Below are positions 22,686-64,000 of a stretch of 64,000 nt of DNA, piece by piece. Origin of the DNA: a virus. The notes beneath the pieces were generated by a model, which saw nothing but the letters and a program-made list of their open reading frames with translations, did no database searches and was not told where the DNA came from. A program made the translations under genes and the position numbers. Position 1 is the first letter of the stretch. Every line of letters starts with the position of its first letter. Location: positions 107,395 through 171,394 of IMG/VR virus record IMGVR_UViG_3300015263_000944; one strand, given 5' to 3'.

Positions 22686-25568
22686 ATGTCTACCACAGTC
22701 ACCCAATGGGTTTTATCCGCTGATTCTCTCGCTATCCCAGCAGTCAACTATGTTGGATGGACAGATACAACAAATGCGGACGGCTCCCCAGATACGTTTT
22801 ATGCCGTCGCCGATCTAACAGATGCGGAAGGCTGGCCTGTTGCCCAGCCAGACATCACCAAATACCTCTTTGCAAAATTCAACTTTTCAATTCCAACCAC
22901 AGCGACAATCCTTGGTCTGGAAGTCAAAGTTGTAAGAAAGGCAATCGGGAACATTGCAGATGCGGGTGTCTACCTCGGCTTCGCAGACAATACATCTGAG
23001 AATCTTTCGGCCCCAAAATCAAACTCAGGCGATTGGTCAACCACAGACCAGACATCCACATATGGAAGCTCTTCGGATCTGTGGTCTGAATCGTGGACAC
23101 CGGCCATCATCAATGATGCAGACTTTGGTGTTGCCTTGCGTGCTCGTCAATCTGTGTCCCCCGGATTCAATCTGGCATACATTGACGCCATCAAGCTTTC
23201 TGTCACATATCAGAACATCTATTCCGAGACTGGCTCTGGCGGTGTGGCATGTGGCGGATCGGCCACTGTTCAGTTCACAGATTACATTGATGCAACCGGT
23301 GGTGTGGCTGTCGGCGGACACGCACCGTACAACGATTTCGTCGATACAACCGGTGGTGTTGTCGCCGCTGGTTCCGCAGATGTGGTCTCATTCTTTGGGC
23401 CAACTGGTGGCGTGGTCGTCGCTGGTGATCCGGCCTATGGTGTGATCCGACGAGTCTACGAATGGAATGTTCCGCTTTCGCCCGACCAAGAAGTCACTCC
23501 GAATGATTCGACAGCCAGCGGTTTCGCCAGCATCGACGTGATCAACAACGTCCTGTATTGGAGAATCACATATGAGGGATTATCTAGCGGATTCACTGGA
23601 GCACACTTCTACCATGGAGATGCAGGTGTTAATGGAAGTTTCCAAATAGCCATTCCTCCCAATTCCCTCGACGGCACAATGTCGCCGATGGTTGGAAAAG
23701 CTTCGATCACAGGCACGCAGGCCACACAAATTCGAAACGGCGAATGGTACATCAACATCTTCACCACGTCGAATCCGATGCCGAACGGAGAAATCCGTGG
23801 GCAAATCTGGAACATCGGTGCGGCGGCTGGTGGCGTGGCTGATCTCACATTCATCGATCAAATTGATGGAACCGGTGGTGTTGTCGCTGGTGGTACTGCC
23901 CATGCGGAGCACGGCTTATTTGGCACTGGAGGCGTCACCTGTGCAGGCACAGCAGATGTCACGGTCAACTACAACATTGGTGGCGACGGTGGCATCGTTG
24001 GCTCTGGCTTCTCATTCGTTGATCCGTACATCGCTACTGGTGGTGTGGAAGCTGGTGGTTCTGCAACACAAACAACCTACTGGTCCGATGCCGCAGAAGG
24101 CGGCGGCGTTGTCGTTGGTGGCGAAGCTCTCATCCCTTGGGATTTCACTCCCAGCGGTGGTGCGGTTGCTTGGGGCGCAGCAACAGTTCAACGTGTCTTC
24201 ACCATCCCAGAATGGAGCGTTGATCTTGACACAGATCAAGTTGTTGGTGGCTCTGATTCAACTGCGACAGCCCATGCTGACTTTTGGTATGACCCCATCG
24301 AAAGTCGTCTCTCTTGGAAAGTCACCTACAGTGGTTTCGATGGTCCTGTCACTGTTGCCAGATTGAGAGTAGGAGCCCCCGGCCAGAACGGTCATGTGGC
24401 CGTCGAAATGTTCGACTACTCAGACGGAACGGCCAGTGGTTTTACCGGCATGGTTCAAGTCACAGATGACGAAGATCAATTGCGAGCAGGCAATTGGTAT
24501 CTGATGCTTGGCACCTCAACCGACAAGATAAGAAGTCAACTGTGGCACTTCGGCGTCCAGATTGGCGGCGAAGCTGTCGTCGAACCCTACTACGAAATTC
24601 CAAATGGCGGCGTCGTTGTCGGCGGTGAAGCACTCGTAGATCCAATCTGGGCTGAAGGCGGGGCCGTCACTGGTGGTACAGCGGGTGTTACAAGCCGAGA
24701 AACTCGCTCTGCCAAGGGTGGTGTCGTCGTTGGCGGCATCGCACTCAAGGTCGCAAATCTGGACACCACAGGTGGTGTAGTTGTCGGCGGCGATTCGATA
24801 GACTCACAGGTCGAGGCCAACATTGATGGACTTGGCGGCATCAAGGCCGGTGGCAAAGCCATTCCGGGCATCTCCTCTCCGGTCACAGGCGGCGTAGTCG
24901 TCGGCGGGGCCGCTGAAATCGAATTCATCTACAACCACTCAGTCACAGGTGGGGTAGTCGTCGATGGTTCTCCCAGCATTGCCTTTACATACAACCTTCA
25001 GACGAGTGGCGGGGTTGTCATCGCTGGCAACTCAATCATCGCCATCCACATTGTTGCAAGAGGCGGAATTGTTGTCGCTGGTGATCCGGGATTCGCATAC
25101 ACATCCAACCCAGTTCATTCGGGAGGTGCGGTTGTTGGCGGGGTCGCACGACAGACCTTCTTCGATTATGTTGATGGAACTGGCGGCATGGTCACTGGTG
25201 GTCGTGCCCGCCAAGAGAAGATCAAGTTCTTCCAGAAGTTCAAGCAAGGCTACTGCCGAGCAATGGCAAGTGAAAACATCTGCACCGTGGTTCTCGATAC
25301 AAGCGAGCAACTCATCATCCCACATGATGAGGTTTCACCGGATCTCGATCCAAATCGATTCCGTATCGAGCATGTGCCGACATGGTGCGATGTCAATGAG
25401 AAGCTGCAACCTTACAACAAGGTGGTTCCAGACAGAGATTGCGATGCCGCCTTGGCAGAAGTGATTGTGAAACGCCAAAACGGCATCGTCCCGAAAAAGG
25501 TGAGACCTTCTATCGTCCGAGAACGGCAAATAGCCGCCGCAGGAAACGAAGTCGCCGAAGCCCTTTAA
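22686..25568 (+). CDS. Giant Gly/Val-rich repeat protein with CHRD-like domains (fiber/adhesin-like)
   Basis: AAAGGAG RBS. Roughly 40 TGGVxVGG repeats, two CHRD-like AHFYHGDAGVNG segments, and stretches near-identical to the protein at 60501..64000. Confidence 0.7.
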   Translation: MSTTVTQWVLSADSLAIPAVNYVGWTDTTNADGSPDTFYAVADLTDAEGWPVAQPDITKYLFAKFNFSIPTTATILGLEVKVVRKAIGNIADAGVYLGFADNTSENLSAPKSNSGDWSTTDQTSTYGSSSDLWSESWTPAIINDADFGVALRARQSVSPGFNLAYIDAIKLSVTYQNIYSETGSGGVACGGSATVQFTDYIDATGGVAVGGHAPYNDFVDTTGGVVAAGSADVVSFFGPTGGVVVAGDPAYGVIRRVYEWNVPLSPDQEVTPNDSTASGFASIDVINNVLYWRITYEGLSSGFTGAHFYHGDAGVNGSFQIAIPPNSLDGTMSPMVGKASITGTQATQIRNGEWYINIFTTSNPMPNGEIRGQIWNIGAAAGGVADLTFIDQIDGTGGVVAGGTAHAEHGLFGTGGVTCAGTADVTVNYNIGGDGGIVGSGFSFVDPYIATGGVEAGGSATQTTYWSDAAEGGGVVVGGEALIPWDFTPSGGAVAWGAATVQRVFTIPEWSVDLDTDQVVGGSDSTATAHADFWYDPIESRLSWKVTYSGFDGPVTVARLRVGAPGQNGHVAVEMFDYSDGTASGFTGMVQVTDDEDQLRAGNWYLMLGTSTDKIRSQLWHFGVQIGGEAVVEPYYEIPNGGVVVGGEALVDPIWAEGGAVTGGTAGVTSRETRSAKGGVVVGGIALKVANLDTTGGVVVGGDSIDSQVEANIDGLGGIKAGGKAIPGISSPVTGGVVVGGAAEIEFIYNHSVTGGVVVDGSPSIAFTYNLQTSGGVVIAGNSIIAIHIVARGGIVVAGDPGFAYTSNPVHSGGAVVGGVARQTFFDYVDGTGGMVTGGRARQEKIKFFQKFKQGYCRAMASENICTVVLDTSEQLIIPHDEVSPDLDPNRFRIEHVPTWCDVNEKLQPYNKVVPDRDCDAALAEVIVKRQNGIVPKKVRPSIVRERQIAAAGNEVAEAL

Positions 25569-63500: not shown

Positions 63501-64000
63501 CCCGCCAGAGACACCAATGGCAAGCTCTGTCAAGAAGACATACACGGCCCCAGCGTCCGAGAGGAAATCCGCTTCATCTTCATCGAAGTCTTGGCCCGGA
63601 GCGGGCACAAGAATCGCTTCGTCTGTGAAGGTGATCTGTTGGTTGAGCCCATTGCTGTACTTGCTCAGGTAGTCATTGGATTGATCGGACTGATGGTGAA
63701 TTCGACCTTCAAAGGCAAATCCTCCATTCCCGTCAACATCTTGGTAGACATAGATTGCACCAGAATCATTTGGGGCCGATCCGCCCGTAGAATCTCTGGC
63801 AGCAAAGAAGTCTCCACCAAAAATTCGGACCCCATCAAAACCAACACATGATCCGAAGAAACTAACATCATTAAGATCGGGGCTCGGTCGGAGAAACTTT
63901 TGAAACAATCCCCAATTGTTGGTTCCCCCATAATCTTTTGAATGAAGATAGACGGCTCCTCGATTTGAGAAGTCATCATTGACAGCACCGGTGACAAACC
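60501..64000 (-). CDS. Giant FG-GAP/Gly-rich repeat protein, partial (N-terminus beyond window end); paralog of 22686..25568
   Basis: The track 'M' at 63908 is TTG. The frame stays open to position 64000 (…GAVYLHSKDYGGTNNWGLFQKF…). FG-GAP-like GAIYVY/GAVYLH repeats and TGGVxVGG repeats. Shares VDPIWAEGGAV and QTF(F/Y)DYVDGTGG with the plus-strand paralog. Confidence 0.65.
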   Translation of the reverse strand, partial: FVTGAVNDDFSNRGAVYLHSKDYGGTNNWGLFQKFLRPSPDLNDVSFFGSCVGFDGVRIFGGDFFAARDSTGGSAPNDSGAIYVYQDVDGNGGFAFEGRIHHQSDQSNDYLSKYSNGLNQQITFTDEAILVPAPGQDFDEDEADFLSDAGAVYVFLTELAIGVSGGVKVGGSASVVGSTSIMASGGVVAGGTSANRYTHDGTGGVVVAGTGSDSILKTETTSGGVVVGGSADVALIGHNIEMFGGVLTSGFSYNQSYIPATGGVVVAGAALNQSFIVAQGGVVAGGNAIQTFYDYVDGTGGAVVGGNAIRRDLRIYNYTSNGNLIKIGGTAGGGITGVNLAASGGVSMSGSAGLRFSFNKDLTCLWNLRAAIFKDLTFLWNLGELPAFWYRIIGKGRQGDECNLVADPCCQKFIVNIHARTLGELCEKLSQRRLNLPIESVQRFSRPAENSVVQQLEAEGDNFDCNELTPVEICGIPKCSEFCIDEDLTVTFGFTINRVQIDAFLEAEAEGGVFIAGSAICSYAATPYPEEDIGGGAVVGGEAFVESSYYAYTGTGGLTVAGTGGLSASAYSFIGGEWPSIVANRFSLAQESLADETSDQVWSLVERIAKDDNLYASTDISYAKKSEFLIARNFNLDIPETVDVLGAIVNIERWATQSGVRDLEVYLLVGDEIISDNLADTTNDWPVGASFSPKSYGSNGYDGSGQAWSAFIDPADLNDPNFGIAIRIESQLSLAAIIANVDYISLDVFYEEAEHQRIRMGGEAKVVSSAFSYVGSGEIEVGGEAGYESSMVAYEVMTGGVTVSGGAPYTFNVDTTGGVVVGAEALVDPIWAEGGAVMGGEAKVTPFFEEGTGGAVAGGGSLDSWHKHYEASGGVTMGGTSFTPEAAFTYEATGGVSMAGSADRRASVWSYTSDGNAIFILGSAGQSASDYGTLIENAEFDMTIRDIIVAYGNDQHLGDAEILNTDVAQCGCFTIPLMINFEHNLVRDNILAQFLVRNNLSFNSRLLLSYNTINNSWQRNVHFKGLSADANTYETWDIVIELQCTNIIGSTAIGRDIWKLSMQFFRENLDTGEDYDSRIILGILPEAICDTNANELKFTVTYDTQADVAVVNPNATIYQNSIYDNIGLFKRRSWINNPDMVLTVSQVGLDSPLLRVDVTDEVLIS

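Follow-up and report, generated by a model that had tools for sequence, protein, structure and literature searches.

Within the 64,000-nucleotide (nt) stretch of the virus record IMGVR_UViG_3300015263_000944 that we analysed (positions 107,395 to 171,394 of the record, hereafter the window), two large genes for Gly-rich repeat proteins face each other across about 35 kb of other genes. A preliminary description of this DNA had taken the pair, here called A and B, for paralogues that form long inverted repeats and can mediate inversion of the segment between them. We find instead that A and B are two separate orthologous families with common modules and not recent paralogues. The two resemble each other because both are built from the same old kit of modules, and it is near certain that these shared modules are ancient and that no inversion takes place. 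The two are probably distinct, conserved proteins of modular build that serve an uncultured jumbo phage as surface fibres or adhesins; that they are fibres of the virion itself is an even proposition or slightly better.

Gene A occupies positions 22686..25568 of the plus strand and codes for a protein of 960 amino acids (aa). Gene B is an open reading frame (ORF) on the minus strand with its stop at 60501, and it is still open at the window edge, so that positions 60501..64000 hold aa 267-1431 of the protein while the gene runs on to ~64796. The full length of 1431 aa was read from a 100%-identical JGI contig, Ga0247387_10000633 (metagenome 3300022562; 120 kb), which is an independent assembly of the same phage. 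This contig is collinear with the window, with 100% identity over positions 49178-64000 and 99.9% over 12726-35568, and its protein P0001 is identical to A; the A orthologues are P0002-P0006. The two genes are convergent, with stop codons 34.9 kb apart. The ORF calls and translations agree with the preliminary description on the position, strand and size of A and on the presence of the minus-strand ORF B, although the word "giant" was too strong for proteins of 960 and 1431 aa.

Protein A begins with a ~155-aa β-sandwich domain of the galactose-binding-like jelly-roll type, which it shares with B and which we call ND (aa 2-180; 22689..23225, plus strand as for all features of A). This domain is followed by a first block of Gly-rich repeats with about four units (aa 181-250; 23226..23435; motif positions 185, 205, 223 and 241), a first CHRD domain (aa 262-374; 23469..23807; the best stretch of the Pfam family PF07452), a second repeat block (aa ~380-500; 23823..24185; motif positions 397-473) and a second CHRD domain with approximate limits (aa ~507-622; 24204..24551), which is the second Pfam stretch and the one to which the single CHRD of the orthologues aligns. 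A third repeat block of 11 units (aa 625-845; 24558..25220) leads into the C-terminal domain (aa 846-960; 25221..25565), which is conserved in the A family and carries the motifs ENI(L/C), WCD and RQxG(Y/I)VPxK. The two CHRD stretches score 112.1 bits against a cut-off of 24.1 and are all that Pfam finds in A at E ≤ 1, FG-GAP not being among the matches. Members of the A family have one or two CHRD domains each, and the C-terminus of ~115 aa is common to P0002-P0006, with N864, W900, C901, C919, Q931, P936 and K938 as invariant columns in the A-family alignment (A1).

Protein B is organised differently around the same kinds of repeat. Its N-terminal region of FG-GAP repeats forms a variable head (aa 1-424, of which aa 267-424 lie in the window at 63525..64000, minus strand as for all features of B), and next comes a first Gly-rich repeat block of about nine units (aa 425-619; 62940..63524) that terminates in QTFYDYVDGTGG. 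The Cys-rich middle domain that follows (aa 620-782; 62451..62939) shows the highest conservation in the B family and is succeeded by a second repeat block (aa 783-845; 62262..62450), a copy of ND (aa 861-1018; 61743..62216), a third repeat block that includes ALVDPIWAEGGAV (aa 1028-1179; 61260..61715) and a C-terminal domain of ~250 aa (aa 1180-1431; 60504..61259), which is kept in all B-family orthologues, those on jumbo-phage contigs of IMG/VR included. In Pfam, full-length B matches FG-GAP_2 (PF14312) at 61.8 bits against a cut-off of 23 and shows no CHRD, and the window fragment alone, with only the last ~158 residues of the FG-GAP region, has no Pfam match. CHRD in A and FG-GAP in B, both named in the preliminary description, are thus above the Pfam cut-offs. 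The Cys-rich middle domain has no match in Pfam, PDB or NCBIfam; its invariant residues are W632, C668, C675, C692, C731, C740, C745 and C749 (alignment A4).

The B family is notable for exchanging its heads on a constant core. B and P0190 have an FG-GAP region as head, P0189 has Gly_rich_2 (PF21722), and P0024 and P0012 have ND, while P0017 lacks a head. Despite these swaps, the core (aa 430-1431) retains 30-44% identity across orthologues, and the Cys-rich and C-terminal domains are kept in P0189, P0017, P0024, P0012, P0190 and the IMG/VR orthologues. The other domains of A and B and their C-termini differ, so the idea that the two are duplicates of each other does not hold.

The Gly-rich repeat itself is common to both proteins. 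A strict form of the motif, GG[hydrophobic]x3[G/A..][G/A/S], is found at 19 places in A and 18 in B, compared with a mean of 0.4 and a maximum of 4 in shuffled sequences; the "dozens of repeats" claimed earlier therefore come down to ~19 and ~18. The period is 17-21 residues in both proteins, with xTGGVVVGGxA followed by about nine variable residues, and the consensus of the repeat is (D/Y)(N/Y)(I/V)x(A/G)(T/S)GGVVVGGxAxV... Both peptide blocks that had been singled out as near-identical (VDPIWAEGGAV-type and QTF(F/Y)DYVDGTGG) are indeed present in A and B. The block GGVVVG(G/A)EALVDPIWAEGGAV(T/M)GG lies at A 641-666 and B 1085-1110, and QTF(F/Y)DYVDGTGG, which comes last or next to last among the units of its repeat block, lies at A 824-835 and B 557-568, so that the third repeat block of A holds both. 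As QTFxDYVDGTGG and (A/S)xVDP(I/Y)x.EGG recur throughout both the A and the B families, the blocks are family-wide repeat variants and not specific to this pair; what maintains them is selection at the peptide level and not a recent exchange of DNA. Tandem Repeats Finder detects no tandem repeats at the DNA level in A or B, which rules out recent repeat expansion or slippage.

No repeat family in Pfam or NCBIfam matches the TGGVVVGGxA consensus, and no PHROG or PDB entry matches the repeat. A homologue search with the third repeat block of A alone returned five short matches and missed A itself, the Gly-rich sequence having swamped the word index. Other carriers pair the Gly repeat with lectin-like domains of the Laminin_G_3 type. 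With respect to fold, the repeat is most readily compared to β-solenoid proteins, examples of which are the left-handed hexapeptide β-helices, the C-terminal β-helix of MinC and the pentapeptide repeats. A period of ~18-20 residues, Gly-rich turns and short hydrophobic strands would fit one coil per repeat, and a low-confidence AlphaFold2 (AF2) model of A has two short strands in each unit. Unlike those proteins, however, the unit length here varies between 17 and 21, and the matches are not significant: in a profile search of the PDB, the repeats align to the MinC β-helix at E = 0.79, which is not evidence. A polyglycine-II or collagen-like structure was also considered and rejected, since hydrophobic triplets part the Gly pairs.

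Besides the repeats, the two proteins have ND in common. A single ~155-aa domain is represented by A 2-180 and by B 861-1018 (i-E of 3.2e-21 for the B copy in hmmsearch), and by BLASTP, A 2-175 and B 845-1015 align at 32% identity over 276 columns (E of 9e-19 for the pair). By fold comparison, ND is a β-jelly-roll resembling carbohydrate-binding modules (CBMs) and superposable on solved CBMs. Its fold is like that of the galactose-binding-like group (CBM32, CBM15, CBM35, F-type lectin, MAM), whereas the sequence identity to these is 7-17%. No Pfam CBM, discoidin or F-lectin model matches ND, 74 members of the domain family have no family in common, and Pfam, NCBIfam and PHROG models leave the domain unmatched altogether. 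A profile of ND nonetheless finds 18,891 cluster representatives (13,951 of them at E ≤ 1e-10) in a library of 1.84 billion proteins, with up to 11 copies per protein and several copies being common. ND is therefore very widespread yet outside all domain libraries searched, and it merits a family model of its own. At the level of sequence, what is new here is the combination of a Gly-rich repeat unmatched in the searched libraries and a very large jelly-roll family without a model.

Among predicted viral structures (BFVD), the best matches to ND have TMq values of 0.66-0.76 and include several tail or tail-fibre proteins, such as the "Tail protein" of Methanobacterium virus Drs3 (TMq 0.71). 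By sequence, ND also corresponds to the N-terminal part of a protein annotated "tail tubular protein A" (652 aa), whose gene comes after the capsid genes of the podovirus MW202478.

At the nucleotide level, A and B are not long inverted repeats. The best inverted match between them, on which a repeat finder and sensitive blastn agree, is 71 nt at 79% identity (24606-24676 / 61480-61550) and falls, on the side of A, in the third repeat block. The remaining matches are at most 36 nt long (29-36 nt for the next ones) with 72-91% identity, and exact identity extends over no more than 17 nt, compared to a maximum of 15 nt in codon shuffles. In the 26-codon block GGVVVG(G/A)EALVDPIWAEGGAV(T/M)GG(T/E)A, 23 residues are identical, and 13 of these 23 are written with different codons. 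Synonymous sites are thus saturated even in the best A/B block, and the DNA has diverged about as far as possible; recent gene conversion between A and B was rejected for the same synonymous differences. The preliminary description had named similarity restricted to low-complexity Gly repeats, with no extended nucleotide identity, as the finding that would speak against it. Extended nucleotide identity is indeed lacking, but the similarity is not limited to the Gly repeats, as ND is shared as well.

With no extended A/B nucleotide identity, homologous recombination has nothing to act on that would invert the 35 kb between the genes. The proposal that recombination between A and B flips the segment with its E1/E2/JAB, major vault protein (MVP), VWA/TROVE and ligase genes draws on the convergent orientation of the two genes, their common short peptide blocks and the single 71-nt stretch, but we regard it as extremely improbable. 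The lengths of the exact and approximate matches and the saturated synonymous sites speak against it, and no invertase or resolvase family is present among the scanned genes of the interval. The Pfam lists for the proteins of 12.7-35.6 and 49.2-64 kb contain no recombinase, resolvase or integrase family, nor do the 20 proteins of 25.5-50.4 kb include a resolvase or integrase, a few small ORFs lying outside these scans. The gene order flanking A and that flanking B are unchanged in three diverged relatives, and the single related contig that has both genes keeps them convergent. No inverted isomer is found among the related contigs, and the independent JGI assembly of this phage runs in the same order as the window, these being assemblies and not reads. 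A crossover would also yield chimeric A/B genes with mismatched domains. In the G segment of phage Mu (Gin) and the C segment of P1 (Cin), short near-identical inverted sites and an adjacent serine invertase switch the C-termini of fibres. The window resembles these systems in that fibre-like genes in opposite orientation flank a segment of phage DNA, but it differs in having no matching sites, no invertase, 35 kb of unrelated genes and an arrangement that is fixed in relatives. Had the two genes been inversion-prone repeats, a 35-kb accessory region would have been subject to programmed rearrangement, which is not the case.

The placement of both genes is conserved across three diverged Logan contigs, in which the A-type gene lies beside a block running from a ubiquitin-like protein (Ubl) and ThiF to MVP, and the B-type gene has phoH as its neighbour on one side, with a small ORF, an amidoligase and sigma70 on the other. 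SRR29850986_769 (162.7 kb) is the only contig shown with both genes, which are convergent and ~32.5 kb apart. Here, the A-type P0004 (33% identity) adjoins a 123-aa ORF and ThiF, with the order continuing through MVP, while the B-type P0024 is flanked by phoH on one side and by a 108-aa ORF, the amidoligase and sigma70 on the other. SRR12983642_410 (164.5 kb) covers the A side, with a histidine kinase and an acetyltransferase inserted ahead of the ThiF block, and SRR13608702_39968 (150.8 kb) covers the B side. B-family genes also occur on five viral contigs of IMG/VR (68-459 kb), with phoH directly upstream in both of the two checked (459 and 189 kb). In every contig examined for this (L002, L005, L014, L017 and L019, of which L002 is the JGI contig), the B-family gene is directly downstream of phoH; for the B of the window, the upstream gene lies beyond window position 64796. 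A-type genes are found on contigs of 120-165 kb and B-family genes on contigs of 69-163 kb in addition to those of IMG/VR. An exact 38-mer of A is absent from IMG/VR, and 24 kb of the window, compared by megablast with 50,697 phage records, has no match there.

Directly after B, a 106-aa ORF with one N-terminal transmembrane helix is present (60161-60481, minus strand). Counterparts of 90-108 aa occupy the same position in other contigs, and a chaperone, anchor or holin-like role is possible for them. A second large phage-like contig was noted in the metagenome of the JGI assembly (3300022562; Ga0247387_10000286, 100.7 kb, L012). Its protein P0011 consists of LamG, ~25 repeats and a Cys-rich C-terminus, in which PPIILCRQG resembles the C-terminal RQxG(Y/I)VP of A. 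This contig may be a further piece of the same genome, or it may come from a related phage.

As to function, the fibre or adhesin role suggested in the preliminary description is plausible and has indirect support from the CBM-like fold of ND, the occurrence of ND in tail proteins, a fusion of the repeat to a tail-completion domain and the swapping of heads. The fusion is found in P0035, which combines LamG, Gly repeats and a Tail_completion_gp17 domain. Its gene is part of a recognisable series that runs from small terminase, large terminase, portal, protease and capsid through connectors to P0035 itself and then to ORFs without a family. For A and B, we infer a phage origin, a location in the virion, glycan binding and a fibre architecture. 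Each protein would be exposed on the virion surface as a fibre, whisker or adhesin, in which the conserved C-terminal domain would anchor the protein on the particle or direct assembly, the blocks of Gly repeats would serve as stalk-like spacers and the lectin-like modules would bind glycans of the host surface. Other modules of ligand-binding type are present in each protein, namely two CHRD domains in A and the FG-GAP region in B. The conserved parts are the last ~115 aa of A and the core of B (aa 430-1431), with N-terminal or internal heads being swapped among orthologues.

In several respects, A and B are comparable to modular phage receptor-binding proteins, fibres and whiskers of the T4 gp12/gp37 type and to podovirus tail proteins with CBMs. 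They are likewise large and have no signal peptide; repetitive β-rich stalks would alternate with lectin-like modules, terminal heads are exchanged, and ND and the Gly repeat are each found in proteins of phage structural modules. If A and B do serve as host-recognition fibres, they could help to predict which hosts these phages infect, and the TGGVVVGG repeat of 17-21 residues would be a candidate for a new fibre-stalk fold, whose conserved anchor would be C-terminal rather than N-terminal.

A number of observations weigh against a virion fibre. Neither protein has a sequence or profile match to a known fibre family: sequence searches of PHROGs, NCBIfam and PDB return nothing for A or B, and T4 gp12 appears in the PDB profile search at E = 0.79, which is not significant and is not evidence. 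A conserved C-terminus with a variable N-terminus is the reverse of the classical tail-fibre polarity, in which the N-terminus is conserved and the C-terminus varies. Both genes lie outside a recognisable structural module, their neighbours being tRNAs, the cassette of Ubl, E1, JAB and E2 genes, phoH, the amidoligase and sigma70, and capsid, portal, terminase and tail genes were not identified in the window or the fetched flanks. ND on its own is no sign of a virion, as it is also common in bacterial cell-surface proteins, where immunoglobulin (Ig), PKD, cadherin and type IX secretion system (T9SS) domains accompany it. Structure prediction, too, lends no fibre fold to A: the AF2 monomer of the full-length protein, built on a six-sequence alignment, has a predicted local distance difference test (pLDDT) score of 42.5, with the repeats below 50, and is unreliable. 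As the repeats and the C-terminus are unmodelled, it was left out of the fold search. A PHROGs search with ten neighbours of A and B gives one match, of function not known; NCBIfam gives nothing for A, B, the Ubl-like ORF and the small membrane ORF; and the literature yielded nothing relevant on CHRD in phages, Gly-rich tail-fibre repeats, vaults in huge phages or Gly_rich_2.

Some of these observations would suit phage-encoded proteins that are not part of the virion, such as scaffolds, superinfection-exclusion proteins or host-surface-remodelling adhesins, which would bind host glycans or cell-wall precursors. Both genes are among non-structural genes, with B always following phoH and preceding the small membrane protein, amidoligase and sigma factor, glycosyltransferases are nearby, and no structural gene is recognised in the flanks. 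However, as read from the translations, A and B have no N-terminal signal peptide, membrane segment or sorting domain, and such proteins would thus lack the signal peptide or transmembrane segment for reaching the envelope. The fusion of the Gly repeat to a tail-completion domain within a structural module, the recurrence of ND in annotated tail proteins and the swapping of heads on a conserved core, which is typical of host-recognition proteins, also speak for the surface fibre or adhesin, and we consider a non-virion role rather unlikely. It is a good deal less probable that the window belongs to a bacterial chromosome or megaplasmid, in which case A and B would be cell-surface adhesins of an ordinary bacterial kind. 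In favour of this, surface proteins of bacteria often carry FG-GAP, CHRD and the jelly-roll domain, FG-GAP has its closest matches in Bdellovibrio proteins, and no capsid or terminase is seen in the window. Against this stand the B-family orthologues on IMG/VR viral contigs, an array of 47 tRNA genes, the many ORFs without a family and the lack of a secretion signal or sorting domain; the contigs of the clade are 68-459 kb in size, and 90 kb of inspected sequence contains no housekeeping genes.

The cassette beside A suggests yet another role, that of Ubl target, which the preliminary description had called plausible for both proteins and for which proximity is all that speaks. A Ubl-conjugation-type set of genes on the minus strand (25510-29944) encodes a β-grasp-like ORF, a ThiF E1, a JAB-like protein, a 322-aa ORF and an E2-like protein, and the 3' end of the 122-aa β-grasp-like ORF (...EFVKEAGVKG plus a 16-aa basic tail) overlaps that of A by 59 nt. 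Bacterial Bil systems are said to conjugate Ubl to the central tail fibre of phages, in work attributed to Hör et al. 2024. By analogy, A and perhaps B might be substrates of the phage cassette, a suggestion that we hold to be very improbable. It appeals to the position of the cassette, which is immediately 3' of A and convergent with it, and to the same adjacency in SRR29850986_769. Adjacency is nevertheless its sole basis, and gene order is conserved clade-wide, so that proximity carries little information; in SRR12983642_410, genes for a histidine kinase and an acetyltransferase come between the cassette and A, B is 35 kb away from it, and the JAB-like and E2-like matches are below the Pfam cut-offs. 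There is equally little likelihood that the cassette conjugates the 122-aa β-grasp protein to A, or to A and B, as a phage-encoded counterpart of Bil defence. If this were true, Ubl tagging of A and B might serve virion assembly, decoration or the pre-empting of tagging by the host. A second ThiF and JAB pair is present on the minus strand at 35464-37207, 6-10 kb from the cassette.

The gene content of the window makes it likely, as far as sequence can tell, that it is part of a jumbo phage. Of the 47 tRNA genes predicted by ARAGORN, 44 are on the minus strand within 16 kb, and most amino acids are covered; the array, mostly on the minus strand, extends over 5978-22053, with further genes at 33517-33616, 40940-41014 and 41744-41814. 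The other genes include phoH, DnaJ, sigma70, an eIF-1a/IF1-like gene, an NAD-ligase and glycosyltransferases, and most ORFs have no family. The product of a 404-aa ORF (43031-44242) gave no record on look-up. On the minus strand, a 912-aa protein (30608-33346) carries the shoulder domain of the major vault protein (PF11978) and is conserved in three related contigs. A 522-aa protein on the same strand (39269-40837) has a weak C-terminal VWA match that is compatible with Ro60/TROVE, TROVE itself not being detected.

Rfam gives additional tRNA-like matches at 34147-34237, 34533-34654 and 42334-42387, one of them 122 nt long. A repeat of ~30-66 nt with the core TGTTTGTA.GCTTCA..GT.GGGGAC (repeat families D1, D6 and D7) is present at 20567-20632, 20745-20810, 41097-41162 and 41897-41962, and shorter copies are found near 20141, 34497, 41009, 41806 and 42289. 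On the plus-strand map, the 522-aa gene is directly followed by tRNA-Leu (40940-41014) and the 66-nt repeat. More generally, the repeat with the TGTTTGTA core adjoins tRNA or tRNA-like elements and may be a promoter or a processing signal.

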